Below are positions 13,378 through 61,540 of a DNA stretch of 64,000 nucleotides, one piece after another. Within the stretch, counting starts at the first letter, position 1, and every line of letters begins with the position of its first letter. The translations under genes and the position numbers were made by a program. The DNA lies in the NCBI GenBank assembly GCA_040954595.2, contig CM082598.2, positions 7,579,097 through 7,643,096 of the forward strand, in the 5' to 3' direction. This stretch comes from Balanoglossus misakiensis. Taxonomy: Eukaryota > Animalia > Hemichordata. The notes below the pieces were generated by a model. That model ran no database searches. It saw only the letters and a list, made by a program, of their open reading frames with translations, and was not told where the DNA came from.

Positions 13378-14834
13378 AATGATGTCAGGATCAAACAGTT
13401 TAATGATGTGAGGTAAAGCCTGTTGAATATTAATTCAGGTTGCCTGCAGCCCATCGTGTAAACTTAGATACAGGTTGTAGGTCAGTGGAACCTCACAATT
13501 AATATCAGCTAAAGTCTTCTGTCCTGTCACTAAGCTGTCGAGATTGTCCCTTATCTTAAGTAGTACTGTTTCCATATTTCTAATGGGGGAAAAATACAAG
13601 GTGACTGAATTTTTAAATAATTCTATGTCACTGACTCAAAAACCTACTTAAAAAATGACCCCCAAATAAAAAATAAAATTTGTTCAGTACGAATTTATCC
13701 CAGGAGAGGGCTAAATACAATAAAAGAGAAATATGAACGAATGCAAAGGGGAAAAGCAAGACTTGACTGCTGACATGAGAAGGAAAAAAAATGCTGTCAT
13801 GGCAACAACGAGCTCGCTCACCAGCTGACACTTTTGTATGCATCAACGAAAATTTACTTCAAAGCTTAGAAAACACGTCTATTTTTATTATGCTTGCAAA
13901 ATTAATAGAAGATATGTCCCTCATAACAAGCTAAATTTGGTATCGCAACATAACAAAAAGTATCGTGTTGACATCAGTGCCGTAAATATAAAAATGACAG
14001 TTCACCATTCACTCACACTACATGAAATGATAAACAAGTTTGAACTTTTTCATCGCCAAAAAATCCATTCAAATACAATCATGCTTTGAAATTTAGCATT
14101 TTATGACCTGTAGATGCAAGTTTCTATCAAACTTTTCCGTGTTTTTCGTAATTCTGTACATTTACAGCATAGAAAATGCCGAGCGCAAAAAAAAAGATCG
14201 CGTCAACATGTTTGTTGATATCCCGTTCGGCCATCTTGACCTAGTTTCGGCGGGTAATTCCCCGCGACCTCACTGACACGGAAATTTATTGCCGGTAAAA
14301 AACGGTGAGCTCGTCAGTAAAATATCATTCCCCTAATTTTTAAAACAACATGAAATGATAAAAATCCTGGATATATGCGTTTATGAATTTTACATACCGT
14401 ATTTACGAAAGAAAAAACTTGACAAAACCTTTGACCCGCGCTGATGAATATATAGTAGCAGTGATTTCTTATGAAACTCATATCATATTATAGCTTGTTT
14501 TATTGGCTATAATTTGGTGTACTGTTGAAAGACTTTCAACGATTGGCTCATCCTTTGCTTTTCCGTTTTCCGTCCGCCACCCCTCACTTTTTAGGGCCAT
14601 GCGCACAAAAGACGGCACATTGGGGGTCATCGGCGATATTTTCCAGGGGGAGTACTACTCATGCATTAACCGTACAGAAGTTTTCACATGTTCTATTGAG
14701 AGAGAATGACTCCAGTGCTTCATTATTTAGCGTAAAATTATTATTGTACGACGCCAAAAAATTGAAAAACGGCGACTTTAAAATCTCCAAAAATTTACTG
14801 TGGGGGAGAGTTCGAACGGCCGCCATATTGGATT

Positions 14835-30644: not shown

Positions 30645-33600
30645 AGCGAGAACGAGTCTTCCCAAGCAGCATATGACATGGATGTAACCCCGGCAACCTC
30701 AACCCCCAGCGCATGGACAAGGGAGAGAACGAGTCTTCCCAAGCAGCATATGACACGGATGTAACCCCGGCCACCTCAACCCCCAGCACAGGGACAAGGG
30801 ACAGCGAGAACGAGTCTTCCCAAGCAGCATATGACACGGATGTAACCCCGGCCACCTCAACCCCCAGCGCAGGGACAAGGGACAGCGAGAACGAGTCTTC
30901 CCAAGCTGCATATGACAGGGATGTAACCCCGGCCACCTCAACCCCCAGCGCAGGGACAAGGGACAGCGAGAACGAGTCTTCCCAAGCTGCATATGACACG
31001 GATGTAACCCCGGCCACCTCAACCCCCAGTGCAGGGACAAGGGACAGCGAGAACGAGTCTTCAAAAGCAGCATATGACACGGATGTAACCCCGGCCACCC
31101 CAACCCCCAGCGCAGGGACAAGGGACAGCGAGAACGAGTCTTCCCAAGCAGCATATGACACGGATGTAACCCCGGCCACCCCAACCCCCAGCGCAGGGAC
31201 AAGGGACAGCGAGAACGAGTCTTCCCAAGCAGCATATGACACGGATGTAACCCCGGCCACCCCAACCCCCAGCGCAGGGACAAGGGACAGCGAGAACGAG
31301 TCTTCCCAAGCAGCATATGACAGGGATGTAACCCCGGCCACCTCAACCCCCAGCGCAGGGACAAGGGACAGCGAGAACGAGTCTTCCCAAGCAGCATATG
31401 ACAGGTATGTAACCCCGGCCACCTCAACCCCCAGCGCAGGGACAAGGGACAGCGAGAACGAGTCTTCCCAAGCAGAATATAACACGAATGTAACCTTGGC
31501 CACCTCAACCCCCAGCGCAGGGACACTTAGGGACAGCGAGAACGAGTCTTCCCAAGCAGCATATGACACAGATGTAACCCCGGCCACCTCAACCTCCAGC
31601 GCAGGGACAAGGGACAGCGAGAACGAGTCTTCCCAAGCAGCATATGACACGGATGTAACCCCGGCCACCTCAACCTCCAGCGCAGGGACAAGGGACAGCG
31701 AGAACGAGTCTCCCCAAGCAGCATATGACAGGGATGTAACCCCGGCCACCTCAACCCCCAGCGCAGGGACAAGGGACAGCGAGAACGAGTCTTCCCAAGC
31801 AGCATATGACATGGATGTAACCCTGGCCACCTCAACCCCCAGCGCAGGGACAAGGGACAGCGAGAACGAGTCTTCCCAAGCAGAATATAACACGAATGTA
31901 ACCTTGGCCACCTCAACCCCCAGCGCAGGGACACTTAGGGACAGCGAGAACGAGTCTTCCCAAGCAGCATATGACACAGATGTAACCCCGGCCACCTCAA
32001 CCTCCAGCGCAGGGACAAGGGACAGCGAGAACGAGTCTTCCCAAGCAGCATATGACACGGATGTAACCCCGGCCACCTCAACCTCCAGCGCAGGGACAAG
32101 GGACAGCGAGAACGAGTCTCCCCAAGCAGCATATGACAGGGATGTAACCCCGGCCACCTCAACCCCGGCGCAGGGATAAGGGACAGCGAGAACGAGTCTT
32201 CCCAAGCAGCATATGACATGGATGTAACCCCGGCCACCTCAACCCCCAGCGCAGGGACAAGGGACAGCGAGAACGAGTCTTCCCAAGCAGAATATAACAC
32301 GAATGTAACCTTGGCCACCTCAACCCCCAGCGCAGGGACACTTAGGGACAGCGAGAACGAGTCTTCCCAAGCAGCATATGACACAGATGTAACCCCGGCC
32401 ACCTCAACCTCCAGCGCAGGGATAAGGGACAGCGAGAACGAGTCTTCCCAAGCAGCATATGACATGGATGTAACCCCGGCCACCTCAACCCCCAGCGCAG
32501 GGACAAGGGACAGCGAGAACGAGTCTTTCCAAGCTGCATATGACAGGGATGTAACCCCGGCCACCTCAACCTCCAGCGCAGGGACAAGGGACAGCGAGAA
32601 CGAGTCTTCCCAAGCAGCATATGACAGGTATGTAACCCCGGCCACCTCAACCCCCAGCGCATGGACAAGGGACAGCGAGAACGAGTCTTCCCAAGCAGCA
32701 TATGACACGGATGTAACCCCGGCCACCTCAACCCCCAGCGCATGGACAAGGGACAGCGAGAACGAGTCTTCCCAAGCAGCATATGACACGGATGTAACCC
32801 CGGCCACCTCAACCCCCAGCGCAGGGACAAGGGACAGCGAGAACGAGTCTTCCCAAGCAGCATATGACACGGATGTAACCCCGGCCACCTCAACCCCCAG
32901 CGCAGGGACAAGGGACAGCGAGAACGAGTCTTCCCAAGCAGAATATAACACGAATGTAACCTTGGCCACCTCAACCCCCAGCGCAGGGACACTTAGGGAC
33001 AGCGAGAACGAGTCTTCCCAAGCAGCATATGACACGGATGTAACCCCGGCCACCTCAATCCCCAGCGCAGGGACAAGGGACAGCGAGAACGAGTCTTCCC
33101 AAGCTGCATATGACAGGGATGTAACCCCGGCCACCTCAACCCCCAGCGCAGGGACAAGGGACAGCGAGAACGAGTCTTCCCAAGCAGCATATGACAGGGA
33201 TGTAACCCCGGCCACCTCAACCCCCAGCGCAGGGACAAGGGACAGCGAGAACGAGTCTTCCCAAGCTGCATATGACACGGATGTAACCCCGGCCACCTCA
33301 ACCTCCAGCGCAGGGATTAGGGACAGCGAGAACGAGTCTTCCCAAGCAGCATATGACACGGATGTAACCCCGGCCACCTCAACCTCCAGCGCAGGGCAAG
33401 GGACAGCGAGAACGAGTCTTCCCAAGCAGCATATGACACGGATGTAACCCCGGCCACCTCAACCCCCAGCGCAGGGACAGGGGACAGCGAGAACGAGTCT
33501 TCCCAAGCAGCATATGACACGGATGTAACCCCGGCCACCTCAACCCCCAGCGCAGGGACAAGGGACAGCGAGACGAGTCTTCCCAAGCAGCATATGACAC

Positions 33601-36600
33601 GGATGTAACCCCGGCCACCTCAACCCCCAGCGCAGGGACAAGGGACAGCGAGAACGAGTCTTCCCAAGCAGCATATGACACGGATGTAACCCCGGCCACC
33701 TCAACACCCAGCGCAGGGACAAGGGACAGCGAGAACGAGTCTTCCCAAGCAGCATATGACATGGATGTAACCCCGGCCACCTCAACCCCCAGCGCAGGGA
33801 CAAGGGACAGCGAGAACGAGTCTTCCCAAGCAGCATATGACAGGGATGTAACCCCGGCCACCTCAACCCCCAGCGCAGGGACAAGGGACAGCGAGAACGA
33901 GTCTTCCCAAGCAGCATATGACAGGTATGTAACCCCGGCCACCTCAACCCCCAGCGCAGGGACAAGGGACAGCGAGAACGAGTCTTCCCAAGCTGCATAT
34001 GACACGGATGTAACCCCGGCCACCTCAACCCCCAGCGCAGGGACAAGGGACAGCGAGAACGAGTCTTCCCAAGCAGCATATGACACGGATGTAACCCCGG
34101 CCACCTCAACCCCCAGCGCAGGGACAAGGGACAGCGAGAACGAGTCTTCCCAAGCAGAATATAACACGAATGTAACCTTGGCCACCTCAACCCCCAGCGC
34201 AGGGACACTTAGGGACAGCGAGAACGAGTCTTCCCAAGCAGCATATGACACGGATGTAACCCCGGCCACCTCAACCCCCAGCGCAGGGACAAGGGACAGC
34301 GAGAACGAGTCTTCCCAAGCAGCATATGACACAGATGTAACCCCGGCCACCTCAACCTCCAGCGCAGGGACAAGGGACAGCGAGAACGAGTCTTCCCAAG
34401 CAGCATATGACACGGATGTAACCCCGGCCACCTCAACCTCCAGCGCAGGGACAAGGGACAGCGAGAACGAGTCTCCCCAAGCAGCATATGACAGGGATGT
34501 AACCCCGGCCACCTCAACCCCCGGCGCAGGGATAAGGGACAGCGAGAACGAGTCTTCCCAAGCAGCATATGACATGGATGTAACCCCGGCCACCTCAACC
34601 CCCAGCGCAGGGACAAGGGACAGCGAGAACGAGTCTTTCCAAGCTGCATATGACAGGGATGTAACCCCGGCCACCTCAACCTCCAGCGCAGGGACAAGGG
34701 ACAGCGAGAACGAGTCTTCCCAAGCAGCATATGACAGGTATGTAACCCCGGCCACCTCAACCCCCAGCGCAGGGACAAGGGACAGCGAGAACGAGTCTTC
34801 CCAAGCTGCATATGACACGGATGTAACCCCGGCCACCTCAACCCCCAGCGCAGGGACAAGGGACAGCGAGAACGAGTCTTCCCAAGCAGCATATGACACG
34901 GATGTAACCCCGGCCACCTCAACCCCCAGCGCAGGGACAAGGGACAGCGAGAACGAGTCTTCCCAAGCAGAATATAACACGAATGTAACCTTGGCCACCT
35001 CAACCCCCAGCGCAGGGACACTTAGGGACAGCGAGAACGAGTCTTCCCAAGCAGCATATGACACGGATGTAACCCCGGCCACCTCAACCCCCAGCGCAGG
35101 GACAAGGGACAGCGAGAACGAGTCTTCCCAAGCTGCATATGACACGGATGTAACCCCGGCCACCTCAACCCCCAGCGCAGGGACAAGGGACAGCGAGAAC
35201 GAGTCTTCCCAAGCAGCATATGACACGGATGTAACCCCGGCCACCTCAACCCCCAGCGCAGGGACACTTAGGGACAGCGAGAACGAGTCTTCCCAAGCAG
35301 CATATGACACGGATGTAACCCCGGCCACCTCAACCCCCAGCGCAGGGACAAGGGACAGCGAGAACGAGTCTTCCCAAGCTGCATATGACAGGGATGTAAC
35401 CCCGGCCACCTCAACCCCCAGCGCAGGGACAAGGGACAGCGAGAACGAGTCTTCCCAAGCAGCATATGACACGGATGTAACCCCGGCCACCTCAACCCCC
35501 AGCGCAGGGACAAGGGACAGCGAGAACGAGTCTTCCCAAGCTGCATATGACAGGGATGTAACCCCGGCCACCTCAACCCCCAGCGCAGGGACAAGGGACA
35601 GCGAGAACGAGTCTTCCCAAGCAGCATATGACACGGATGTAACCCCGGCCACCTCAACCCCCAGCACAGGGACAAGGGACAGCGAGAACGAGTCTTCCCA
35701 AGCAGAATATAACACGAATGTAACCTTGGCCACCTCAACCCCCAGCGCAGGGACACTTAGGGACAGCGAGAACGAGTCTTCCCAAGCAGCATATGACACG
35801 GATGTAACCCCGGCCACCTCAATCCCCAGCGCAGGGACAAGGGACAGCGAGAACGAGTCTTCCCAAGCTGCATATGACAGGGATGTAACCCCGGCCACCT
35901 CAACCCCCAGCGCAGGGACAAGGGACAGCGAGAACGAGTCTTCCCAAGCAGCATATGACAGGGATGTAACCCCGGCCACCTCAACCCCCAGCGCAGGGAC
36001 AAGGGACAGCGAGAACGAGTCTTCCCAAGCTGCATATGACACGGATGTAACCCCGGCCACCTCAACCTCCAGCGCAGGGATTAGGGACAGCGAGAACGAG
36101 TCTTCCCAAGCAGCATATGACACGGATGTAACCCCGGCCACCTCAACCTCCAGCGCAGGGCAAGGGACAGCGAGAACGAGTCTTCCCAAGCAGCATATGA
36201 CACGGATGTAACCCCGGCCACCTCAACCCCCAGCGCAGGGACAGGGGACAGCGAGAACGAGTCTTCCCAAGCAGCATATGACACGGATGTAACCCCGGCC
36301 ACCTCAACCCCCAGCGCAGGGACAAGGGACAGCGAGACGAGTCTTCCCAAGCAGCATATGACACGGATGTAACCCCGGCCACCTCAACCCCCAGCGCAGG
36401 GACAAGGGACAGCGAGAACGAGTCTTCCCAAGCAGCATATGACACGGATGTAACCCCGGCCACCTCAACACCCAGCGCAGGGACAAGGGACAGCGAGAAC
36501 GAGTCTTCCCAAGCAGCATATGACATGGATGTAACCCCGGCCACCTCAACCCCCAGCGCAGGGACAAGGGACAGCGAGAACGAGTCTTCCCAAGCTGCAT

Positions 36601-39600
36601 ATGACAGGGATGTAACCCCGGCCACCTCAACCCCCAGCGCAGGGACAAGGGACAGCGAGAACGAGTCTTCCCAAGCAGCATATGACAGGTATGTAACCCC
36701 GGCCACCTCAACCCCCAGCGCAGGGACAAGGGACAGCGAGAACGAGTCTTCCCAAGCTGCATATGACACGGATGTAACCCCGGCCACCTCAACCCCCAGC
36801 GCAGGGACAAGGGACAGCGAGAACGAGTCTTCCCAAGCAGCATATGACACGGATGTAACCCCGGCCACCTCAACCCCCAGCGCAGGGACAAGGGACAGCG
36901 AGAACGAGTCTTCCCAAGCAGAATATAACACGAATGTAACCTTGGCCACCTCAACCCCCAGCGCAGGGACACTTAGGGACAGCGAGAACGAGTCTTCCCA
37001 AGCAGCATATGACACGGATGTAACCCCGGCCACCTCAACCCCCAGCGCAGGGACAAGGGACAGCGAGAACGAGTCTTCCCAAGCAGCATATGACACAGAT
37101 GTAACCCCGGCCACCTCAACCTCCAGCGCAGGGACAAGGGACAGCGAGAACGAGTCTTCCCAAGCAGCATATGACACGGATGTAACCCCGGCCACCTCAA
37201 CCTCCAGCGCAGGGACAAGGGACAGCGAGAACGAGTCTCCCCAAGCAGCATATGACAGGGATGTAACCCCGGCCACCTCAACCCCCGGCGCAGGGATAAG
37301 GGACAGCGAGAACGAGTCTTCCCAAGCAGCATATGACATGGATGTAACCCCGGCCACCTCAACCCCCAGCGCAGGGACAAGGGACAGCGAGAACGAGTCT
37401 TTCCAAGCTGCATATGACAGGGATGTAACCCCGGCCACCTCAACCTCCAGCGCAGGGACAAGGGACAGCGAGAACGAGTCTTCCCAAGCAGCATATGACA
37501 CGGATGTAACCCCGGCCACCTCAACCTCCAGCGCAGGGACAAGGGACAGCGAGAACGAGTCTTCCCAAGCAGCATATGACACGGATGTAACCCCGGCCAC
37601 CTCAACCCCCAGCGCAGGGACAAGGGACAGCGAGAACGAGTCTTCCCAAGCAGCATATGACACAGATGTAACCCCGGCCACCTCAACCCCCAGCGCATGG
37701 ACAAGGGACAGCGAGAACGAGTCTTCCCAAGCAGCATATGACAGGTATGTAACCCCGGCCACCTCAACCCCCAGCGCAGGGACAAGGGACAGCGAGAACG
37801 AGTCTTCCCAAGCTGCATATGACACGGATGTAACCCCGGCCACCTCAACCCCCAGCGCAGGGACAAGGGACAGCGAGAACGAGTCTTCCCAAGCAGCATA
37901 TGACACGGATGTAACCCCGGCCACCTCAACCCCCAGCGCAGGGACAAGGGACAGCGAGAACGAGTCTTCCCAAGCAGAATATAACACGAATGTAACCTTG
38001 GCCACCTCAACCCCCAGCGCAGGGACACTTAGGGACAGCGAGAACGAGTCTTCCCAAGCAGCATATGACACGGATGTAACCCCGGCCACCTCAACCCCCA
38101 GCGCAGGGACAAGGGACAGCGAGAACGAGTCTTCCCAAGCTGCATATGACAGGGATGTAACCCCGGCCACCTCAACCCCCAGCGCAGGGACAAGGGACAG
38201 CGAGAACGAGTCTTCCCAAGCAGCATATGACAGGGATGTAACCCCGGCCACCTCAACCCCCAGCGCAGGGACAAGGGACAGCGAGAACAAGTCTTCCCAA
38301 GCTGCATATGACACGGATGTAACCCCGGCCACCTCAACCTCCAGCGCAGGGATTAGGGACAGCGAGAACGAGTCTTCCCAAGCAGCATATGACACGGATG
38401 TAACCCCGGCCACCTCAACCTCCAGCGCAGGGCAAGGGACAGCGAGAACGAGTCTTCCCAAGCAGCATATGACACGGATGTAACCCCGGCCACCTCAACC
38501 CCCAGCGCAGGGACAGGGGACAGCGAGAACGAGTCTTCCCAAGCAGCATATGACACGGATGTAACCCCGGCCACCTCAACCCCCAGCGCAGGGACAAGGG
38601 ACAGCGAGACGAGTCTTCCCAAGCAGCATATGACACGGATGTAACCCCGGCCACCTCAACCCCCAGCGCAGGGACAAGGGACAGCGAGAACGAGTCTTCC
38701 CAAGCAGCATATGACACGGATGTAACCCCGGCCACCTCAACCCCCAGCGCAGGGACACTTAGGGACAGCGAGAACGAGTCTTCCCAAGCAGAATATAACA
38801 CGAATGTAACCTTGGCCACCTCAACCCCCAGCGCAGGGACACTTAGGGACAGCGAGAACGAGTCTTCCCAAGCAGCATATGACACGGATGTAACCCCGGC
38901 CACCTCAACCCCCAGCGCAGGGACAAGGGACAGCGAGAACGAGTCTTCCCAAGCTGCATATGACAGGGATGTAACCCCGGCCACCTCAACCCCCAGCGCA
39001 GGGACAAGGGACAGCGAGAACGAGTCTTCCCAAGCAGCATATGACAGGGATGTAACCCCGGCCACCTCAACCCCCAGCGCAGGGACAAGGGACAGCGAGA
39101 ACAAGTCTTCCCAAGCTGCATATGACACGGATGTAACCCCGGCCACCTCAACCTCCAGCGCAGGGATTAGGGACAGCGAGAACGAGTCTTCCCAAGCAGC
39201 ATATGACACGGATGTAACCCCGGCCACCTCAACCTCCAGCGCAGGGCAAGGGACAGCGAGAACGAGTCTTCCCAAGCAGCATATGACACGGATGTAACCC
39301 CGGCCACCTCAACCCCCAGCGCAGGGACAGGGGACAGCGAGAACGAGTCTTCCCAAGCAGCATATGACACGGATGTAACCCCGGCCACCTCAACCCCCAG
39401 CGCAGGGACAAGGGACAGCGAGACGAGTCTTCCCAAGCAGCATATGACACGGATGTAACCCCGGCCACCTCAACCCCCAGCGCAGGGACAAGGGACAGCG
39501 AGAACGAGTCTTCCCAAGCAGCATATGACACGGATGTAACCCCGGCCACCTCAACCCCCAGCGCAGGGACACTTAGGGACAGCGAGAACGAGTCTTCCCA

Positions 39601-42600
39601 AGCAGAATATAACACGAATGTAACCTTGGCCACCTCAACCCCCAGCGCAGGGACACTTAGGGACAGCGAGAACGAGTCTTCCCAAGCAGCATATGACACG
39701 GATGTAACCCCGGCCACCTCAACCCCCAGCGCAGGGACAAGGGACAGCGAGAACGAGTCTTCCCAAGCTGCATATGACAGGGATGTAACCCCGGCCACCT
39801 CAACCCCCAGCGCAGGGACAAGGGACAGCGAGAACGAGTCTTCCCAAGCAGCATATGACAGGGATGTAACCCCGGCCACCTCAACCCCCAGCGCAGGGAC
39901 AAGGGACAGCGAGAACAAGTCTTCCCAAGCTGCATATGACACGGATGTAACCCCGGCCACCTCAACCTCCAGCGCAGGGATTAGGGACAGCGAGAACGAG
40001 TCTTCCCAAGCAGCATATGACACGGATGTAACCCCGGCCACCTCAACCTCCAGCGCAGGGTAAGGGACAGCGAGAACGAGTCTTCCCAAGCAGCATATGA
40101 CACGGATGTAACCCCGGCCACCTCAACCCCCAGCGCAGGGACAAGGGACAGCGAGACGAGTCTTCCCAAGCAGCATATGACACGGATGTAACCCCGGCCA
40201 CCTCAACCCCCAGCGCAGGGACAAGGGACAGCGAGACGAGTCTTCCCAAGCAGCATATGACACGGATGTAACCCCGGCCACCTCAACCCCCAGCGCAGGG
40301 ACAAGGGACAGCGAGAACGAGTCTTCCCAAGCAGCATATGACACGGATGTAACCCCGGCCACCTCAACCCCCAGCGCAGGGACACTTAGGGACAGCGAGA
40401 ACGAGTCTTCCCAAGCAGCATATGACACGGATGTAACCCCGGCCACCTCAACCCCCAGCGCAGGGCAAGGGACAGCGAGAACGAGTCTTCCCAAGCAGCA
40501 TATGACACGGATGTAACCCCGGCCACCTCAACCCCCAGCGCAGGGCAAGGGACAGCGAGAACGAGTCTTCCCAAGCTGCATATGACACGGATGTAACCCC
40601 GGCCACCTCAACCTCCAGCGCAGGGATTAGGGACAGCGAGAACGAGTCTTCCCAAGCAGCATATGACACGGATGTAACCCCGGCCACCTCAACCTCCAGC
40701 GCAGGGCAAGGGACAGCGAGAACGAGTCTTCCCAAGCAGCATATGACACGGATGTAACCCCGGCCACCTCAACCCCCAGCGCAGGGACAGGGGACAGCGA
40801 GAACGAGTCTTCCCAAGCAGCATATGACACGGATGTAACCCCGGCCACCTCAACCCCCAGCGCAGGGACAAGGGACAGCGAGACGAGTCTTCCCAAGCAG
40901 CATATGACACGGATGTAACCCCGGCCACCTCAACCCCCAGCGCAGGGACAAGGGACAGCGAGAACGAGTCTTCCCAAGCAGCATATGACACGGATGTAAC
41001 CCCGGCCACCTCAACCCCCAGCGCAGGGACACTTAGGGACAGCGAGAACGAGTCTTCCCAAGCAGAATATAACACGAATGTAACCTTGGCCACCTCAACC
41101 CCCAGCGCAGGGACACTTAGGGACAGCGAGAACGAGTCTTCCCAAGCAGCATATGACACGGATGTAACCCCGGCCACCTCAACCCCCAGCGCAGGGACAA
41201 GGGACAGCGAGAACGAGTCTTCCCAAGCTGCATATGACAGGGATGTAACCCCGGCCACCTCAACCCCCAGCGCAGGGACAAGGGACAGCGAGAACGAGTC
41301 TTCCCAAGCAGCATATGACAGGGATGTAACCCCGGCCACCTCAACCCCCAGCGCAGGGACAAGGGACAGCGAGAACAAGTCTTCCCAAGCTGCATATGAC
41401 ACGGATGTAACCCCGGCCACCTCAACCTCCAGCGCAGGGATTAGGGACAGCGAGAACGAGTCTTCCCAAGCAGCATATGACACGGATGTAACCCCGGCCA
41501 CCTCAACCTCCAGCGCAGGGCAAGGGACAGCGAGAACGAGTCTTCCCAAGCAGCATATGACACGGATGTAACCCCGGCCACCTCAACCCCCAGCGCAGGG
41601 ACAGGGGACAGCGAGAACGAGTCTTCCCAAGCAGCATATGACACGGATGTAACCCCGGCCACCTCAACCCCCAGCGCAGGGACAAGGGACAGCGAGACGA
41701 GTCTTCCCAAGCAGCATATGACACGGATGTAACCCCGGCCACCTCAACCCCCAGCGCAGGGACAAGGGACAGCGAGAACGAGTCTTCCCAAGCAGCATAT
41801 GACACGGATGTAACCCCGGCCACCTCAACCCCCAGCGCAGGGACACTTAGGGACAGCGAGAACGAGTCTTCCCAAGCAGAATATAACACGAATGTAACCT
41901 TGGCCACCTCAACCCCCAGCGCAGGGACACTTAGGGACAGCGAGAACGAGTCTTCCCAAGCAGCATATGACACGGATGTAACCCCGGCCACCTCAACCCC
42001 CAGCGCAGGGACAAGGGACAGCGAGAACGAGTCTTCCCAAGCTGCATATGACAGGGATGTAACCCCGGCCACCTCAACCCCCAGCGCAGGGACAAGGGAC
42101 AGCGAGAACGAGTCTTCCCAAGCAGCATATGACAGGGATGTAACCCCGGCCACCTCAACCCCCAGCGCAGGGACAAGGGACAGCGAGAACAAGTCTTCCC
42201 AAGCTGCATATGACACGGATGTAACCCCGGCCACCTCAACCTCCAGCGCAGGGATTAGGGACAGCGAGAACGAGTCTTCCCAAGCAGCATATGACACGGA
42301 TGTAACCCCGGCCACCTCAACCTCCAGCGCAGGGTAAGGGACAGCGAGAACGAGTCTTCCCAAGCAGCATATGACACGGATGTAACCCCGGCCACCTCAA
42401 CCCCCAGCGCAGGGACAAGGGACAGCGAGACGAGTCTTCCCAAGCAGCATATGACACGGATGTAACCCCGGCCACCTCAACCCCCAGCGCAGGGACAAGG
42501 GACAGCGAGACGAGTCTTCCCAAGCAGCATATGACACGGATGTAACCCCGGCCACCTCAACCCCCAGCGCAGGGACAAGGGACAGCGAGAACGAGTCTTC

Positions 42601-43547
42601 CCAAGCAGCATATGACACGGATGTAACCCCGGCCACCTCAACCCCCAGCGCAGGGACACTTAGGGACAGCGAGAACGAGTCTTCCCAAGCAGCATATGAC
42701 ACGGATGTAACCCCGGCCACCTCAACCCCCAGCGCAGGGCAAGGGACAGCGAGAACGAGTCTTCCCAAGCAGCATATGACACGGATGTAACCCCGGCCAC
42801 CTCAACCCCCAGCGCAGGGCAAGGGACAGCGAGAACGAGTCTTCCCAAGCAGCATATGACACGGATGTAACCCCGGCCACCTCAACCCCCTGCGCAGGGA
42901 CAAGGGACAGCGAGACGAGTCTTCCCAAGCAGCATATGACACGGATGTAACCCCGGCCACCTCAACCCCCAGCGCAGGGACAAGGGACAGCGAGACGAGT
43001 CTTCCCAAGCAGCATATGACACGGATGTAACCCCGGCCACCTCAACCCCCAGCGCAGGGACAAGGGACAGCGAGAACGAGTCTTCCCAAGCAGCATATGA
43101 CACGGATGTAACCCCGGCCACCTCAACCCCCAGCGCAGGGACACTTAGGGACAGCGAGAACGAGTCTTCCCAAGCAGCATATGACACGGATGTAACCCCG
43201 GCCACCTCAACCCCCAGCGCAGGGACAAGGGACAGCGAGAACGAGTCTTCCCAAGCTGCATATGACACGGATGTAACCCCGGCCACCTCAACCCCCAGCG
43301 CAGGGACAAGGGACAGCGAGAACGAGTCTTCCCAAGCAGCATATGACACGGATGTAACCCCGGCCACCTCAACCTCCAGCGCAGGGACAAGGGACAGCGA
43401 GAAAGAGTCTTCCCAAGCAGCATATGACACGGATGTAACCCCGGCCACCTTAACCTCCAGCGCAGGGGAAAGGGACAGCGAGAACTAGTCTTCCCAAGCA
43501 GCATATGACACTGATGTAACCCCAGCCACCTCAACCCCCAGCGCAGG
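30645..43547 (+). repeat. 81-bp coding minisatellite, ~160 units (27-aa RDSENESSQAAYDTDVTPATSTPSAGT), with higher-order repeats
   Basis: Directly visible; 80-, 81- and 84-bp variants; variant blocks recur at ~2764, ~2272 and 814-bp spacing. Confidence 0.98.
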
Positions 43548-45668
43548 GAGCAGCAACGATGGTGACCAAGAACTCATGTTCATGAAAACTCCTATCATTG
43601 TAAGGTCACCTTTAAAAGAAAAAAATATAGGTAAGTGCAGCAATACAGTATTTAGTGCAAGTATACAATCAAGTGTTACAATAACTCATAACAAGTACAT
43701 AGGAAAATACCTTGAAATAGTTGAATGCAGACTGCAGTGTTAAAGTCTGTTGAAAAACATTCTAAATAGTAATCACACTGGCTGCTGTGGTGAATTGTTG
43801 TTCAGCTCATTACTTCCATTTACATTTTAGCAGAAACATTGATAGCACCAATTATTTATATTTTGGCATGAACTTTAACCTACTTTTGACATTTCAGTAT
43901 TTTTCTGCATATATAATTTGAGACAGGGCTAGTTTTTTTTTTATTCTGGCTCACTTGACCTATACCTCATCAAATATGTGAATATATCTAATAATAGGCT
44001 TACCAGTAATGAACATGTACTGTGGGATGAAATTTAGTTGCCACCTTCTCAACCTCTTTGCTTAAATGTCAACTTTATTAGCTTAGGCCCTTCTGTGCTT
44101 GCAGTTTAAATTAATAATATGATTTAGTTAATTACAGAACTAGGGGCGGAGCTCCAAAATTGTTGAATGTATAATCAAGTTTACTTATCTTAGCATGGCA
44201 CTATGCCAATAGCAGTTGCCTTTTTCCTCCAGTTGTATAAAATTAAGTGTACCCAGGTCAATGTCTTGTCAATACTGGTTTCTGTCTGGTAAAGGGTTTT
44301 GGCCTATTTTTTTATTCCATGCACATAAGCTGACATTATTATTTTCCATTTTAACGGATATTGGCCAACATACATGCAGGTCAGAAACAACGCGTAAGGT
44401 GAGACATTTCTCCGTTATCTTGTTGGTGTTTTTCTGAATTGTTTTATGGCAAGAAAGGGGTTAGGTTATTATATTACACAAGCTGTCAGTGACACGTACA
44501 TTTTGCTCTGCAGGATTGTCTGTTATTTCATCGTCTGCCAAGGGTCAATCAAGTCCAAGTCTAATATAAGTTGTTTTGTCATGCGTTTTTCATGATTGTT
44601 CACATCTAAATTAGACTACTTGAATCAGACATGTTTTTTTGGTTCTGTGGTTGTTTGTTTGTTTGTTTGTTTGTTTGTTTGTTTTGGGGGGGGGTAAATG
44701 AAAATTTAGATGGCTTGTAACCAATGTTCATGTATTTTTAGGCTATGCTGTATGGGTAAATAACTTGCCGGCATCCTTTCACTCTGTGAAGTTTTTTGGT
44801 TAAATAGTGAAGACACACAGTCACAAAAAGCTACTTTACATATCTAATTATAACATCTGTTTTTGATGCTTTGTATAGTTGGGTGCTTGTGGGGCATTAG
44901 GCCTATATAGATTTTGGTGGATGAGTGTCATTATAATTTGACCATGTGTTCGCAATTCATTATATGAAGTTGTAATAATGTTGCTTACAACATATTTTCC
45001 TAATGATATTTTACATTTCTTCCAGTTTGAAATTCAGACTAAATTGTTTAATGCAACCAAGCCTGTCACCACCAGACATCACAATTCTAAAAGACGGAAA
45101 GTAAAAACAAAAACAAAATTAATTAATAAAATTGCATTGAGCAAAGTTTCATTATTTCTCTAAAATTATATGTCCAAAGACACAAACTCTATATTTGCAA
45201 AAGTTTCTCTTATGATTTGGCTTAAAACAAAAACTGTAAATGTTATTGTGTAAAATCATGTGGTTAACATCAAACAAATTGTAGAACTCATGTCTGATTT
45301 TTCAAGTAACATACACTTGCTCCCCGAATTTTATGTAGCAAAATATAAACACCCATTCTGAATTGAGGCTAAATTTATCATTAATAACATTTTTGTGAGA
45401 TAACTATTTTTAAACAAATCCATAAGTATTTTTTTCGGCACTTTGGCATTGTCTTGTAATTTTCTGCAAAGCGACATATCAAAGTTATTGTTTGGTATGT
45501 CCCAATATGCCAATTTCTTGCTGCCTACTGATCATTTTGAATTAATTTATTCATTCATACAAAATATTAGAGTGATCTGGAATTGTCTTTGACAATGAAC
45601 TGGCTTATGTGGCAAAGACTTTTAATTATATATCAGTAATTAACAAACATTTTTATTGCTTCCTACAG

Positions 45669-50297: not shown

Positions 50298-50762
50298 TAC
50301 TGAACTGAAAAGGGAAAGTGCATTAAAGGTTTTATTTTAACAGCCAATTTTGATTCTCTGCTTACATATACCTCAGTATAGCCGTATAAAGTGTTTCATC
50401 CAGAAAGGGAAACGTCTATCGATATTAACACTCTGTTTACCATGTTGGTGCATGAAATGACGTCAGCGAGCTTGAACGCAGCGTTCACAACAAATCATCA
50501 GCTGATCATGTAAACAGCCCACAGTCGACTTGTCAATATAGGTAAACTGTAGCGAAAGTGTAACGATTTTGTAAACCAATAAACTTTGCTATTTTGCTTT
50601 CGGTGTAGATAAAAGGTCAAAAGGGCCATCCATTGTACTATGCAGGCAATGCAACACACGCAGCGACATGGGAGGTCCTAGTGTAGATCACAAACTTGTT
50701 TGCAGTTCACGGTCCCTCGACTCGTACGTGGTCAGTCAGGCAGATTATTTTTATTTTTCACT

Positions 50763-51057
50763 TGTGGTATTTCTGGAGAATACCTCACCTGGAGTATACC
50801 AGTGCCTGGAGATTCCTGTGGAAATGCTGATTGGGTGGTGACCCTTATGTGACCTGTCACGTGACCCCGTGAAGGTTATATATATCACCGTGGGACCGGA
50901 AGCCGGGGTTCTCTCTCGTCTCGTCCATGGTCTGGTGCTACACGCTCTACTTGTTCTGGACCCGGACCGCCTGCACGCACTCAACTAGGTGAGTATGCGT
51001 TACGGGCATTGACTAGGGAAACCTTTCCGTGGCGTTGAAGTTGGGGAAAACGCTACA
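50763..51057 (+). repeat. 5' LTR (TATA ~50876, splice donor AG|GTGAGT at 50989)
   Basis: Identical to 54241-54535 except at 3 positions by my count. Confidence 0.97.
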
Positions 51058-51058
51058 T

Positions 51059-51076
51059 TGGCGCTGCGAGCAGGGT
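51059..51076 (+). promoter_or_regulatory. Primer binding site, probably tRNA-Ser
   Basis: TGGCGCTGCGAGCAGGGT lies 1 nt after the LTR and resembles the complement of eukaryotic tRNA-Ser 3' ends. Confidence 0.75.
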
Positions 51077-51089
51077 AGAAAAAGGGAAA

Positions 51090-51458
51090 AGCCGGAAATT
51101 AAGTCATCCGTGCAAAGGACCTGGGATTATAATCAACAAGTTAACACCATACTTGTATAAGGTAAAATTCCAGCGGGCCATAGTAACTGCCCACCATGAT
51201 CGGCTTAAGCTATGTCGGAACCGAGACCTGCCCCAATGGGTCATGAGGTATCAAGAAAATCTCAAACGGAATAGTACAGGTAAGGCAGAGATCGCCGATG
51301 TATCATCGACACTATATTGTGTTTGTCGGAAGCCCTATCGTGGTGAGTTCATGATCCAGTGTGATGCTTGCTCGGAGTGGTACCATGGACACTGCGTTGG
51401 GGTGACGACCAGGGATGCGCGGAGGATTTCTGTTTATACTTGTCCGGCATGTTCTTAA
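51090..51458 (+). pseudogene. Integrase C-terminal (GPY/F-like) remnant fused to a PHD finger
   Basis: PCKGPGIIINKL..YLYKVK....HHDRLK followed by YCVCRKPY.GEFMIQCDACSEWYHGHCVG...YTCPAC*. Confidence 0.85.
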
Positions 51459-51489
51459 TCTATTGTCTTTCTCTTCATTGTCCACAGAC

Positions 51490-53862
51490 ATGGCTTCTTC
51501 GTCTCCACCTGATTCACCCAAGCGCCAATGGAAGGAGGTCGCTCCGACTGATCCAAGTGCCGCTCGCCAGCGTCTTAGCCAGGAGATATCCGATGCTACC
51601 ACCAATGACTTCCTTTGGCAAGTTCGAGAGCTCGTCAATGGCATCGGTGTTATCTCCATGGGACCTGACCGGTCTGTGGCACAGGGCCAGGAGCTCCTGA
51701 TCGGTCAATACACCATAGCGGCCCGGAGGAAGCGATGGGGATGGATCAGAGCCCTGCGCAAAGACGTCGATCTTTGCCTTGGTTTTGATCGCGCTTGGAT
51801 TGATGAACATCTTCCTCATCCAAATCCAAGAGAAAACACTTGGTCTGCTCCCCAAAGGTCCAAGAAGTCGGCTTCGTATGAAGTTCCACCTGATGGTATG
51901 TACCGGGACTTCCGTCTTCAGGACCCTGAGCAAGTGGAAAAATGGCAGCGGGAGTCTGTGCACTCAGGTATCCCGCAAGAGGTGCTGCCCGCAGCACCTC
52001 TGCCAGACGTCCAACGCACTCGGGGGCCGGGGGCGGGGGAACTGGTATGTCCACCGGTTGGATCCATATCGGAGGTGCAACCGGTGTTGGTTTCTGCCCC
52101 GGTGGAGGCAGCGCCGGAAGTACTTCCTGCGCCTATGGAAACGGCTAGCCCGCAACGAGGACCAGCGGTGAGGAAGGCTGTGGTGGCAACTGGCCGGGGT
52201 AAGAAGAAGTCCAGTAGAGGTAAGAAGGGGAAGGGGGTTCTGAATCAGCCTCCTGTTGGCTCCGCAGGGAGTCAGCGGGTGCAACGATCTAGCCCTCTTT
52301 CTCTGGTCGGACCCTATAGTGAGGCTTTTCTCCCGGTTGGTTTAGGGCAACCCCCTCTCGTTCCTCTTCCCCCAGGCTACCTTGGAATACCGCCGGCAGA
52401 TCATGTTCGTTGTCCCTTGCCGGAGTGCACGGAGGTAACTGTGGACCTCAGGGCTCATGTCTTGGGTAAGCATGTTCCTCCGGTACTCCGGGGTGATCAT
52501 CCTTTCGAGGCTTGGAGAGTGTTCCATGCTTTGGGCATTCTTCATTCCTGGATTGTTGGGGGATCACCAGGTTCACCGGCCATGAGCTTGTTGGTTTATT
52601 TCGAGCGGTTTGGCCATGTCTTTCTTCCGCCGGTTTCATCGGTAGAGGAAGAGTATTTTCCTTTGATGCATCAACTATGTAGGGATTTGGGGTGGGAGCC
52701 CATGCTACGGTTTGGACTCCACCCGCCAAATTCTCCCGCTGGACTCGTTCACTGGAGAGTGCTCTTGGTTTTGTTGGGTTTTCTTTCTCCTTTGCAGAGA
52801 GCGGAGTTTGCAGGCCTCTTCAGCGGGGATCGGCAGATTCTGCAGGCCAAGAAAACCAAGCAGAGCCATCCTCTGCCCAGGAAGTCGTGCACTGTGTCCC
52901 GATCACAGGAAGCGCAAGATTTGATTGCCTCGGCAACTGCTTCTGCTTCAGGGAGCCAGAGTTTGGATGTAGGTCCTCGCCCGACTAAGTCTAAGGGTAA
53001 GGTGAAATGTGTTGGCAGTGCGGCTTCGCCACTAGGAGCCTTTGATTCTCATTTTCATTTGGATCGATTGACTTCTTCGTGGCGGGGTACTGTCACCCGC
53101 GTGACATCGGACGTAGTGGTCTCCTCCCCTTCCATGCTGAAATCACTGACGGGGATTCCCGTATTGGGTGGGGTGGAGGTTTACTGTGACCCTACGACTT
53201 TTCCCACCAATCTTTCCCGGAGTAAGCGTTGGAAAATTGGCATTGCTGTGGGAATACATCCCAAACAGGCGGCAACACTGACTGGAAGTCGACTGGAGAA
53301 GTTCAAGGAATTAATCCAATCCCCTCAGGTGGCAGCAATTGGGGAGGTTGGGTTAGATTTCTCTGTTGAGACAGACAAATGGCCCCTCCATGAGACAGTG
53401 TTCAGGTTGGCCCTTTCCCAGTGTGATCCACGGAAGCTCCTGGTTCTGCACATCAGAGGAGCTACTGGAGATGTGTGTATTGCTGCTGTCGGGCGTAGGG
53501 CTCTTGAAATCGTTCGTGAGTACTGCGCCAGTGAGCAGTTGATCCACTTCCATGGCTTCACTGGAGATCGTTTTGTGGTCGAGTGCTGGATCAGGGATTA
53601 TCCGTACTGTTACTTCAGCTTTAATGCTGGTGTTAACACTTTTTCTACCCCTCAGCTTGAAGCACTCAGGGCGGTGCCAGAGGATCGTCTTCTCTTGGAG
53701 ACGGACTCCCCGTACTTCCCTGTGGCCAATGGTGCCAAGCCCAACACTCCAGCCTTTATCGGAGATGTTGCTGTCCTGGTTGCGGCGCGGCGGGGGATAC
53801 CTCTGAACCAGCTACTGGAAGCTGCTGCCAACAACACCAGGCGCTTGTACAGCTTCGACTGA
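51490..53862 (+). CDS. 790-aa protein: Pro-rich N-terminus, C2H2-like Zn finger, C-terminal TatD-family metal-dependent DNase
   Basis: Uninterrupted ORF. TatD motifs FDSHFH, VGIHP, IGEVGLD, LVLHIR, IHFHGF and LLETDSPY are all intact (domain from ~53035); CPLPEC...HVLGKH finger; ATG lies 2 nt after a splice acceptor. Confidence 0.92.
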   Translation: MASSSPPDSPKRQWKEVAPTDPSAARQRLSQEISDATTNDFLWQVRELVNGIGVISMGPDRSVAQGQELLIGQYTIAARRKRWGWIRALRKDVDLCLGFDRAWIDEHLPHPNPRENTWSAPQRSKKSASYEVPPDGMYRDFRLQDPEQVEKWQRESVHSGIPQEVLPAAPLPDVQRTRGPGAGELVCPPVGSISEVQPVLVSAPVEAAPEVLPAPMETASPQRGPAVRKAVVATGRGKKKSSRGKKGKGVLNQPPVGSAGSQRVQRSSPLSLVGPYSEAFLPVGLGQPPLVPLPPGYLGIPPADHVRCPLPECTEVTVDLRAHVLGKHVPPVLRGDHPFEAWRVFHALGILHSWIVGGSPGSPAMSLLVYFERFGHVFLPPVSSVEEEYFPLMHQLCRDLGWEPMLRFGLHPPNSPAGLVHWRVLLVLLGFLSPLQRAEFAGLFSGDRQILQAKKTKQSHPLPRKSCTVSRSQEAQDLIASATASASGSQSLDVGPRPTKSKGKVKCVGSAASPLGAFDSHFHLDRLTSSWRGTVTRVTSDVVVSSPSMLKSLTGIPVLGGVEVYCDPTTFPTNLSRSKRWKIGIAVGIHPKQAATLTGSRLEKFKELIQSPQVAAIGEVGLDFSVETDKWPLHETVFRLALSQCDPRKLLVLHIRGATGDVCIAAVGRRALEIVREYCASEQLIHFHGFTGDRFVVECWIRDYPYCYFSFNAGVNTFSTPQLEALRAVPEDRLLLETDSPYFPVANGAKPNTPAFIGDVAVLVAARRGIPLNQLLEAAANNTRRLYSFD

Positions 53863-54221
53863 ACGGGTAATCTTTGGGGGGGTCCTAGGCTGCAGTATTG
53901 GCGTTAGACTGTGAAATCCATATTACATCCGGAGCTGCCTTCCATGGGTCTTTCCCTTTTATCTGGGCCCACGCCACTGGGGATATTTTTGCTTGTTGGT
54001 TTTTGTTACTTCCGGTCCCTCCCCAGTGGCAGTAAAATTGTGTTTGCCACCATCGTGTAAGAATCGATCTCGACGGTATGGCTCTAAAAAGTCCCCAAAA
54101 AAGAAAAAAAAACGTGCCATATCCCGGATTGATTCGAATCGGCTGTTCTGTCCATAATCATCTAACCATCTATGAAAGGAATCTCCCAGTTTCCAGAGAT
54201 CCACACGGAACCCATCGCTTC

Positions 54222-54240
54222 AGAAGAAAACAGGGGAGAG
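54222..54240 (+). promoter_or_regulatory. Polypurine tract
   Basis: AGAAGAAAACAGGGGAGAG immediately 5' of the 3' LTR. Confidence 0.85.
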
Positions 54241-54535
54241 TGTGGTATTTCTGGAGAAAACCTCACCTGGAGTATACCAGTGCCTGGAGATTCCTGTGGA
54301 AATGCTTATTGGGTGGTGACCCTTATGTGACCTGTCACGTGACCCCGTGAAGGTTATATATATCACCGTGGGACCGGAAGCCGGGGTTCTCTCTCGTCTC
54401 GTCCATGGTCTGGTGCTACACGCTCTACTTGTTCTGGACCCGGACCGCCTGCACGCACTCAACTAGGTGAGTATGCGTTACGGGCATTGACTAGGGAAAC
54501 CTTTCCGTGGCGTTGAAGTTGGGGAAAACACTACA
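54241..54535 (+). repeat. 3' LTR
   Basis: Direct repeat of 50763-51057, followed by the TSD CACT. Confidence 0.97.
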
Positions 54536-54958
54536 CACTTGCCCAGACGAAAAATTATACTTGCCACGGGCGTCGGGCGATAGGAAATATCGAGACATGG
54601 AAATTTTTTCATTAGAAAAAAAAAGTAGTCGTCCGTGAAGAAAGAGCATTGTACTATGCATATATTACTTACCACAACAAGTGCTGTCATCAATGCTCGC
54701 TTTCAGTGGAGGCGGCCATCTTGTATCGTCGTCAAGTGATGCCGGTGCACGCGCAATTAGGCTAGATACATGAGTAAAATTACTTTGTTCGGCGCACAGG
54801 GTGAGTAATTTTCCTCGCGAGGAAAAAAATATCAAACACGTTGAATATCGTGATCCTCGGCGCAAAAGTAAAAATATCAGGAAAAATCGCCAGCACACAG
54901 AAGGAAAATTGCTCGAATGACTTTTTGCTCAGCTGATTTCTCTCGTGTGCGGCGGCCT
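54536..54958 (-). mobile_element. Probable 5' terminus of the Harbinger element
   Basis: Minus strand reads TAA|AGGCCGCCGCACACGAGAG, a Harbinger-like end with TWA target; partner end not found. Confidence 0.55.
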
Positions 54959-58937: not shown

Positions 58938-59899
58938 GGGGTGGGACATAGTTATAGAGTAATTAAAGAAACTTACGCTAATGCGGACTGGAATCGGTAC
59001 ACGTCTCTGTGTACATAAACCTTCGTGGAAGCTTCCAAAAATTCACAACTGTCTTCATAAAATCGCCTTCCGTCAACCGAAGTATAATAATATGGGGAGA
59101 ATGTCGAAGCACCACAATCCTTATTTTGGCACCGCAGAGTGATTTTTGATGCCGGTACTGGGCCGGAAAGCAGATATAGTGTCACATTCGTTGGCTCATG
59201 AAATGATGAGAGTTGTGAATCACAACCACAACAGCTTGTCACGGGTGGTGCCAGGAAATGGAGGTAATTTTTCCCCGAAGATTTTGACAAATTCCATAAT
59301 AGATCAACGAATTTGCCTGAGCTAGAATATACGAATGACCCACTAGTCCACATGTTATCAACCAGAGCTGATAAGCGTTCTACCTCTCTCGCGGAAATGG
59401 CTTTCGCTCGTTCACCTCCGGGCTCTATAGATGTCTCTGTCAGCCAGTGGTTGAGGATATCTGCTATGAATTCTATCTGTACTGCACGAAGCTATCTGGT
59501 ATATGGGCAAGCGACAGCGACAGTAGCTTTGTTCCTTCACACCCGAGGCACGAAAATAAAACAAACTCTTTTTCCTGTCTCGTCAGCGACATTCTTGCAA
59601 TGGTATCCCATGCATCCGTTTTCGCGGACAGTGCGGATCGGAAATCGTTCACATTATCTACACAATCGGTAAGTGAACTTCTGATCGCTCGATGAGCCGC
59701 ACCATCCACTTGACATGCAGCATCAAATACAGCAAAGTCCGTACATTTGGTTTTTCGCTGTTTAGGTGGCATCCTGTAGCTGCGGTTCGGAGGTCAACGG
59801 AAATGTGGAAAACAGTGGGGTCGTCACGACTAGACAACAAGCTTGCAAGCAGCCTGCTGAGTGCTGGCGCTGTGTACAGTTTTGTGCTCAAAGACTAAA

Positions 59900-61340
59900 A
59901 AATCCACGACCAAAAACCGGTCGTGGCAGAATATACGTAGAGAAATCAAAGACCTAAACATATCCACGACCAAAAAACCGGTCGTGGCAGAATATACGTA
60001 GAGAAATCAAAGACTTAAACATATCCACGACCAAAAAACCGGTCGTGTGGGAATATACGTAGAGAAATCAAAGACTTCAACATATCCACGACCAAAAAAA
60101 CGGTCGTGGCAGAATATACGTTGAGAAATCAAAGACTTAAACATATCCACGACCAAAAAACCGGTCGTGGCAGAATATACGTAGAGAAATCAAAGACTTC
60201 ACATATCCACGACCAAAAAACCGGTTGTGGCAGAATATACGTAGAAAAATCAAAGACTTAACATATCCACGACCAAAAAACCGGTCGTGGCAGAATATAC
60301 GTAGAGAAATCAAAGACTTAAACATATCCACGACCAAAAAACCGGTCGTGGCAGAATATACGTAGAGAAATCAAAGACTTCAACATATCCACAACCAAAA
60401 AACCGGTCGTGGCAGAATATACGTAGAGAAATCAAAGACTTAAACATATCCACGACCAAAAAACCGGTCGTGTGGGAATATACGTAGAGAAATCAAAGAC
60501 TTAAACATATCCACAACCAAAAAACCGGTCGTGGCAGAATATACGTAGAGAAATCAAAGACTTAAACATATCCACGACCAAAAAACGGTCGTGGCAGAAT
60601 ATACGTTGAGAAATCAAAGACTTAAACATATCCACGACCAAAAAACCGGTCGTGGCAGAATATACGTAGAGAAATCAAAGACTTCACATATCCACGACCA
60701 AAAAACCGGTTGTGGCAGAATATACGTAGAAAAATCAAAGACTTAACATATCCACGACCAAAAAACCGGTCGTGGCAGAATATACGTAGAGAAATCAAAG
60801 ACTTAAACATATCCACGACCAAAAAACCGGTCGTGGCAGAATATACGTAGAGAAATCAAAGACTTCACATAACCACGACAAAAAAACCGGTCGTGTGGGA
60901 ATATACGTAGAGAAATCAAAGACTTCAACATATCCACAACCAAAAAACCGGTCGTGGCAGAATATACGTAGAGAAATCAAAGACTTCACATAACCACGAC
61001 CAAAAAACCGGTCGTGGCAGAATATACATAGAGAAATCAAAGACTTCACATAACCACGACCAAAAACCGGTCGTGGGAGAATATACGTAGAGAAATCAAA
61101 GACTTAAACATATCCACGACCAAAAAACCGGTCGTGGGGGAATATACGTAGAGAAATCAAAGACTTCACATATCCACGACCCAAAAACCGGTCGTGGGGG
61201 AATATACGTAGAGAAATCAAAGACTTCACATATCCACGACCCAAAAACCGGTCGTGGGGGAATATACGTAGAGAAATCAAAGACTTCACATATCCACGAC
61301 CTAAAACCGGTCGTGGGAGAATATACGTAGAAGAAAATCA
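59900..61340. repeat. Subterminal ~60-bp tandem array (~23 copies) with internal palindrome
   Basis: Unit ACATATCCACGACCAAAAAACCGGTCGTGGCAGAATATACGTAGAGAAATCAAAGACTT; inverted copies at ~22930-23056. Confidence 0.97.
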
Positions 61341-61357
61341 GAAACTTAACACAACCA

Positions 61358-61540
61358 CGATGATGATGTTGTTTGTGGTGATGCTTACGTGTTTGTGTGT
61401 GTGTGTGGTGGGGGGGGGGTGGTGGTGGTTGGTCATACTAAAAACGTTGTAGCCCCCCCCCCCCGTAACATTACACCATTGTTTTATTACTGTCGCAAAG
61501 CAATGCCCGATTTGATAGGCTTGGCGCATGCGCGATTTCC
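61358..61540 (-). repeat. Right terminal inverted repeat
   Basis: ...GCAAAGCAATGCCCGATTTGATAGGCTTGGCGCATGCGCGATTTCC is the reverse complement of the left TIR. Confidence 0.95.

Follow-up and report, generated by a model that had tools for sequence, protein, structure and literature searches.

A TatD-bearing LTR element in the Balanoglossus window

The window analysed here is a stretch of 64,000 nucleotides from the hemichordate Balanoglossus misakiensis (GenBank assembly GCA_040954595.2, contig CM082598.2, positions 7,579,097 to 7,643,096 of the forward strand). At positions 50763–54535 of this window lies a long terminal repeat (LTR) element whose third open reading frame (ORF3) encodes a predicted class II TatD nuclease, placed directly after a remnant of pol. 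The features of the element are as follows.

50759..50762, + strand: left target-site duplication (TSD), CACT (repeat check; empty-site joint 50752->54537 in contigs of the DNA runs X1 and X2)
50763..51057, + strand: 5′ LTR, 295 bp, TG..CA ends, TATA-like box near 50877 (LTR comparison)
50927..50929, + strand: out-of-frame upstream ATG in weak context, within putative exon 1
50986..50994, + strand: predicted splice donor TAG/GTGAGT, 69 nt 5′ of the LTR end (donor position similar in relatives)
51059..51076, + strand: primer-binding site (PBS) and deletion junction (near-identical PBS in the relative L007)
51075..51458, + strand: pol 3′ remnant, comprising integrase C-terminal tail, PHD finger and stop (Pfam, homology)
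51460..51487, + strand: pyrimidine tract and CAG, the predicted acceptor, 2 nt 5′ of the ORF3 ATG
51490..53862, + strand: ORF3, 790 aa, with helical domain, linker, zinc-site domain and class II TatD barrel
54227..54240, + strand: polypurine tract (PPT)
54241..54535, + strand: 3′ LTR, 295 bp (LTR comparison)
54536..54539, + strand: right TSD, CACT (repeat check)

The LTR pair differs at three positions (50781, 50829 and 51052 in 5′ LTR coordinates), and a PBS-like 18-mer, TGGCGCTGCGAGCAGGGT, which we take to be of the tRNA-Ser type, begins at 51059. With its TG..CA LTR ends, TSD, PBS and PPT the element has the structural marks of Ty3/Gypsy, and no canonical poly(A) signal was found in its LTR. 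The sole remnant of gag-pol is a run of 127 codons (51075–51455, stop at 51458) made up of an integrase tail and a PHD finger (Pfam E 2e-11), which is 38–55% identical to the pol ends of relatives and is joined directly to the PBS. The initial annotation, made from the sequence of the window, had described the three LTR mismatches, the CACT TSD, the PBS, the PPT and the near-total loss of gag-pol, and all of these were found in their places. As intact gag and pol are absent the copy is not autonomous, and it could move only with the help of full-length sisters. Probably it belongs to an old Ty3/Gypsy lineage that carries a class II TatD gene after pol, and is a young member of it with an internal deletion.

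The uninterrupted 790-aa frame with all TatD metal-binding motifs, likewise claimed at the outset, withstood closer analysis. The Pfam TatD_DNase domain covers aa 518–788 (E 1e-37), and the seven ligands of the class II (HxH) type, as defined in PMC10085689, are present (H521, H523, E619, H654, H688, E737 and D739); here and below, statements from cited papers concern the excerpted parts of those papers. The catalytic columns are conserved in 88–94 of 95 family rows. A second in-frame ATG at 51415 would permit an ORF3 of 815 aa. An AlphaFold model built on the 95-sequence alignment gives confident domains at about aa 20–118, 303–450 and 515–790 with disordered linkers between them, and its TatD barrel superimposes on YcfH with Z 30.3 and a root-mean-square deviation of 2.5 over 251 aligned residues (Foldseek E 1e-12). 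The middle domain is modelled at a predicted local distance difference score of 91 and contains a conserved C-x4-C...H-x4-H arrangement resembling a C2H2 zinc site; its best matches (PDB Z 3.9, BFVD E 0.35, Atlas 0.88) are not clear ones, which is not proof of a new fold. The hydropathy scan of ORF3 revealed neither an N-terminal hydrophobic signal nor a clear membrane anchor, the models show soluble domains, and the most hydrophobic 19-mer (score 1.68) is located inside the folded middle domain. Judged from ligands and model, the ORF3 protein is very probably a catalytically active nuclease.

Sister copies were followed in contigs from X1 and X2, two DNA runs of one sample, possibly the source sample of the window and hence not independent of it, in which contig depth does not equal true copy number. 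Since the empty-site joint is seen in contigs of both runs, the insertion is polymorphic. In X1, LTR ends are also found joined to other sites, one 2263-nt contig spans 51075–53343 at a depth of 273, and a 61-nt contig across the deletion junction has a depth of 41, with flanks at 81–101. Contigs with different sequence upstream of 51075 are present in both runs, and one X2 contig diverges from the window sequence after 51072. From these depths and from the contigs that run on upstream of 51075, most sister copies appear to be longer than the window copy and to carry PHD and TatD as well. The longer sisters leave the window sequence after 51072 and rejoin it at 51075; positions 51073–51074 are matched by neither side, yet extend the PBS as in L007, which fits a mis-jump of tRNA-copied plus-strand DNA, and the deletion thus likely arose at the PBS during reverse transcription. 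A separate case is L010 (2331–3372), where pol is missing and the zinc-knuckle end of gag passes straight into a degraded ORF3, likely another, independent internal deletion.

Comparison of the window ORF3 with its sisters lists 13 single-letter differences, 11 nonsynonymous and 2 synonymous (p 0.54), and an ORF receiving 13 random changes remains stop-free with a probability of 0.61. Given one deletion event, neutral-looking changes and this chance of about 61%, the open ORF3 of the window copy is no sign of selection, and the initial emphasis on the 'only intact gene' falls away in this respect. Hypermutation of the copy was considered but found no support, the 10 A-versus-G differences having no neighbour base in common.

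Recurrence of the TatD gene in a Gypsy clade

The same order of genes recurs elsewhere. Context loci were collected with a DNA pattern for the family motif, giving 40 loci, of which 29 belong to the family; the remaining 11 (3 bacterial TatDs and 8 without a TatD or integrase match) were excluded from the counts. In 14 of the 29 family loci the TatD gene is immediately preceded, on its own strand, by an integrase-PHD homolog (38–55% identical). The other 15 mostly have too little upstream DNA; in L010 gag lies directly upstream, and in L025 no pol match was found in its short, 310-nt upstream stretch. In four relatives (L007, L024, L035 and L038) Pfam delineates gag, a pol that runs protease, reverse transcriptase (RT), RNase H, integrase and PHD, and a separate TatD ORF, so that the predicted order gag-pol-PHD-TatD is seen in other contigs. 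RNase H motifs are retained in the elements. The RT motif reads FLDD in 7 of the 9 PHD-clade elements displayed, and the start of gag in L007, L024 and L039 matches a helix-hairpin-helix domain (HHH_3, E about 1e-6).

Whereas the 29-locus scan began from TatD, a reverse search began from integrase-PHD in two bins rich in retroelement contigs, G001 and G002. TatD was found downstream in 14/14 strong integrase-PHD contigs versus 2/21 weaker rows (Fisher p 5e-8), many of the latter being on short contigs; a one-off capture of a host TATDN gene, named initially as an outcome that would undo the proposal, is therefore not the case. The records of both bins are titled Sedimenticola sp. MAG and their ORF3 products are named 'TatD family hydrolase [Sedimenticola sp.]' by NCBI. 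With at least 150 and at least 66 reverse-transcriptase matches, respectively, the two bins probably contain a large amount of contaminating animal retroelement DNA.

The nine elements with PHD and TatD form a single RT clade (SH-like approximate likelihood ratio test 99) in a quick RT-RNase H tree, whose 49 members do not include named reference elements. L083, which has gag-pol without PHD followed by a TatD ORF3, places its RT in the group adjoining the PHD clade, and its ORF3 has the same middle-domain motif as those of the clade. L083, L091–L093, P0007 and P0168–P0170 make up a second group with shorter TatD ORFs (about 500–640 aa) and this same motif. For 19 elements the distances in integrase are correlated with those in TatD (rho 0.44, p 2e-4); as kinship alone yields such a correlation, it shows joint inheritance and not co-adaptation.

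The combination of middle domain and TatD recurs in homologs recorded from Ptychodera, Pinctada, Ruditapes and Tegillarca. In a profile search over 50%-identity clusters the best 150 rows all had E 5e-70 or better, and the named clusters among the 30 checked extend the list to Ostrea, Lytechinus, Argopecten and Lingula. Near-identical multi-copy records occur at 90% identity in Pinctada (7), Argopecten (5), Ruditapes (3) and Lytechinus (2). These named homologs are known from protein records, genomic context coming from the pattern-scan and bin contigs. Pol-TatD fusion proteins of 1384–3950 aa were not found, which is weak evidence; Pfam detected no retroelement enzyme domain in 51 long homologs and a zinc knuckle in two, and scans of viral contigs gave no match.

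Although TatD domains of different elements are only 30–63% identical, the gene sits at the same place. The ratio of nonsynonymous to synonymous substitution rates (dN/dS) over the TatD domain is 0.085–0.198 in all five close pairs and about 0.14 in two more distant pairs, a further five pairs being saturated. The comparison among copies called for by the initial annotation is divided: purifying selection holds among the close pairs of the family, whereas the differences between the window copy and its sisters look neutral. That a gag-pol-ORF3 architecture with PHD at the end of pol recurs in this clade, with metal ligands intact and the TatD domain under purifying selection, we regard as practically certain. 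One pair of elements in G001, L030 and L079, has integrase-PHD tails that are 97% identical and TatD domains that are 63% identical, with DNA identity of 87% upstream and 66% over TatD, which suggests either exchange of ORF3 between families or fast change of ORF3.

Candidate splicing of the ORF3 message

The donor and acceptor pointed out initially are present in the sequence, with the donor GT at 50989 and the acceptor AG ending at 51487, 2 nt 5′ of the ATG. The window donor alone is not beyond chance (shuffle p 0.094); support for splicing comes from the relatives. Acceptors were called by a rule (YAG and 11 or more pyrimidines out of 16) that was set after the first loci had been viewed, and the held-out set consisted of 10 PHD-lineage loci fetched after the rule was fixed. 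Against a background in which the rule fires within 20 nt upstream of 145/2632 ATGs (5.5%), exactly one rule acceptor lies in the pol-ORF3 gap, 0–9 nt before an ATG, in 9 of the 10 held-out loci (binomial p 4e-11), and eight of these nine ATGs open 787–973 codons. A top-scoring donor is situated 13–69 nt before the PBS in 12/12 placed LTRs (in relatives, within the last 13–62 nt of the LTR), with three ties and three doubtful LTR calls (L035, L023 and L003). Shuffle tests of single LTRs find the donor significant in only 2/11, the signal being positional.

These signals make it likely that the ORF3 message is spliced in the manner of env, joining a donor close to the end of the LTR with an acceptor immediately 5′ of the ORF3 ATG. 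Some loci depart from this arrangement: L074 has no acceptor near its ORF3 ATG, and in the first set the acceptors of L007 and L024 are far from the ORF3 ATG and those of L021 and L039 are below threshold. In addition, the out-of-frame ATG at 50927 would sit in exon 1 and could damp ORF3 translation, and these points count against the proposed spliced message.

The closest analogue in expression is env of Drosophila gypsy, an errantivirus (PMC8096092), which is also a third ORF after pol and is made from a spliced transcript, as is predicted here. The gypsy splice, however, imports the gag start codon, whereas here ORF3 would use its own ATG after the acceptor, with the donor inside the LTR, and the product is a predicted nuclease without membrane features that lacks the signal peptide, anchor and fusion glycoprotein of env.

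Possible origin and substrate of the predicted nuclease, and other features of the window

A possible origin of the TatD domain is suggested by TATDN2. Human TATDN2 degrades R-loop RNA, has little DNase activity and is minimally active on plain RNA-DNA hybrids, and its cysteines C538 and C656 are specific to it, being missing from TATDN1 and TATDN3 (PMC10711561); tatdn2 acts in germ cells (PMC12709183). Other class II TatDs, TATDN3 and YcfH among them, act on DNA as exonucleases or AP (apurinic/apyrimidinic) endonucleases (PMC10085689). Family cysteines at a spacing like that of C538 and C656 occur at position 566 in 78/95 and at 689 in 80/95 rows, a match by spacing only. As described in these three papers, TATDN2 also resembles the window ORF3 in carrying a C-terminal class II TatD after a long N-terminal extension (761 versus 790 aa) and in its Glu/Glu/Asp ligands and similarly spaced cysteines, again compared by spacing. 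It differs in that its N-terminus is described as disordered, whereas the window ORF3 has two predicted folded domains there and is intronless and mobile. A TATDN2 origin of the family TatD is a lead from cysteine spacing. A search with P0007 returned five proteins, none of them TATDN2.

The boldest reading, with a probability of roughly one in three, is that TATDN2, a germ-line R-loop RNase, was captured by an ancient Gypsy clade present in molluscs, echinoderms, hemichordates and brachiopods. The clade would have joined it to an unmatched zinc-binding domain and would use the product of a spliced message to strip RNA off transcribed copies, thereby resisting silencing or replication damage. 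In the explanation that we favour, transcription would start in the 5′ LTR. Gag and Pol would be made from unspliced RNA, whereas a message for ORF3 only would result when the LTR donor is spliced to the acceptor past the pol stop. The nucleus would be the place of action of the ORF3 protein, which would be guided by its N-terminal zinc-finger and helical domains and would remove element RNA from R-loop-type RNA-DNA structures, either at transcribed copies or at replication intermediates, such that copies stay transcribed or germ cells survive the element load. The weakest step is descent from host TATDN2 together with action on R-loop RNA aimed by the N-terminal domains, which we hold only tentatively; among substrates, we place R-loop-type RNA ahead of DNA intermediates, and these ahead of host silencing RNAs. 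The window copy, which has donor, acceptor and ORF3, could still make the nuclease, although nothing shows selection for it.

Several results weigh against TATDN2 capture for R-loop removal. TatD diverges 3–5 times faster than RT (dN 0.33 versus 0.067 and 0.43 versus 0.13), which fits host conflict better than housekeeping, and the ORF3 changes of the window copy itself look neutral. The second cysteine is also present in E. coli YcfH, and the window copy has G689. In the TatD tree the only outsiders are bacterial TatDs, TATDN2 being absent from it. The minimal activity of TATDN2 on plain RNA-DNA duplexes (PMC10711561), along with the retained RNase H motifs of the elements, indicates that ORF3 is no replacement for RNase H. 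From the known activities of class II TatDs (PMC10085689), a DNA substrate would be nearly as plausible as R-loop RNA.

The alternative that fares best, although unlikely in our estimate, keeps the spliced ORF3 and makes it a DNA 3′-5′ exonuclease or AP endonuclease that would trim or repair cDNA and integration intermediates, or destroy stray or competing cDNA. DNA activities are known for TATDN3, TATDN1 and the E. coli paralogs (PMC10085689), the best structural and sequence matches of ORF3 are DNases of the YcfH type, and three of the five relatives scanned have the helix-hairpin-helix match in gag. However, the top rank of YcfH says little, as no solved TATDN2 structure is among the matches, and the cysteine of the YCDP motif fits the spacing of the TATDN2-specific C538, TATDN2 itself having little DNase activity (PMC10711561).

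Less likely still, ORF3 could counter silencing by degrading small RNAs of the host or silencing-guide RNA, with N-terminal domains that bind host proteins. The faster divergence of ORF3 than of RT and the contrast between L030 and L079 (97% in the integrase tails, 63% in TatD), whether by exchange or rapid change, would suit such a role, a separate spliced message would permit independent dosage, and a silencing role for DEDDy ORF3s was raised by Rodriguez et al. (PMC5408684). On the other side, dN/dS in close pairs is well under 1 and the middle domain has no informative match.

That the TatD gene is passive cargo captured from a host, open only through the youth of the copy, is highly improbable: the neutral-looking differences from sisters and the stop-free probability of about 0.61 would agree with it for this one copy, but the same gene lies at the same place in elements with TatD domains 30–63% identical, and the idea is contradicted by the 14/14 reverse search, the dN/dS of 0.09–0.20 and the conserved positions of the splice signals, which, together with the gag-pol-PHD-TatD order in other contigs, bear out the initial proposal of a Gypsy lineage with a dedicated TatD third ORF in env position. 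An envelope-like protein for cell-to-cell spread is the least probable of all; the env position and env-like splice signals of ORF3 would agree with it, but ORF3 has no N-terminal hydrophobic signal and its C-terminal domain is a nuclease barrel.

The closest precedent is provided by Juno and Vesta of bdelloid rotifers (PMC5408684), which are likewise Gypsy-type and carry an enzymatic, non-env ORF3 after pol with catalytic residues intact; its function is unproven there as here, and within-genome copy variation in Juno and Vesta is neutral. Such ORF3s are typically expressed via spliced messages (PMC5408684). Their ORF3, however, is a DEDDy 3′-5′ exonuclease, whereas the present one is a predicted TatD TIM barrel fused to two extra folded domains, and it is clade-wide, goes together with a PHD at the end of pol, shows purifying selection by measurement and has homologs from four animal phyla. 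PMC5408684 makes no mention of TatD, and a term search of PMC13524379, PMC6338049 and PMC6962438 returned nothing on TatD in LTR elements. A literature search by listings, whose coverage lay outside Repbase and subscription journals, found no report of a TatD ORF3 in LTR retrotransposons. From sequence comparison, then, this is a real, clade-wide and selected candidate nuclease ORF3 in Gypsy elements, an enzymatic ORF3 as such being already known.

Little is known of the non-env accessory genes in animal LTR retrotransposons, and the one nuclease precedent, the rotifer DEDDy ORF3, showed no selection signal. A nuclease that is fixed clade-wide, under purifying selection and with its own splice signals is evidently one that the element needs, and, being open to assay, it offers a way to learn what benefit RNA or DNA cleavage brings to a retrotransposon, be it the handling of its intermediates or a defence against host silencing. 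Where bivalve and sea-urchin annotations list multi-copy 'TatD' or 'uncharacterized' genes, these are likely transposon ORFs, and if the capture of TATDN2 is true, many annotated 'TatD/TATDN2-like genes' in these animals would be transposon genes.

Elsewhere in the window, 54792–54955, beside the insertion, is covered to a very high depth by contigs of both X1 and X2, has joints to the opposite strand and is likely a high-copy small inverted-repeat element. A CxC5 cysteine cluster of KDZ-type transposases lies at 58973–59491 on the minus strand (E 1.6e-10), and at 9924–13434, also on the minus strand, two neighbouring open frames, 599 and 581 codons long and without a Pfam match, are possibly a DNA transposon. 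Tandem arrays with periods of 122 and 61 occupy 3–1385 and 59888–61360, respectively, and a larger array at 30645–43549 (81-bp unit, about 159 copies, 95% matches) contains open frames of up to 947 codons and may be either a satellite or a repetitive coding exon.

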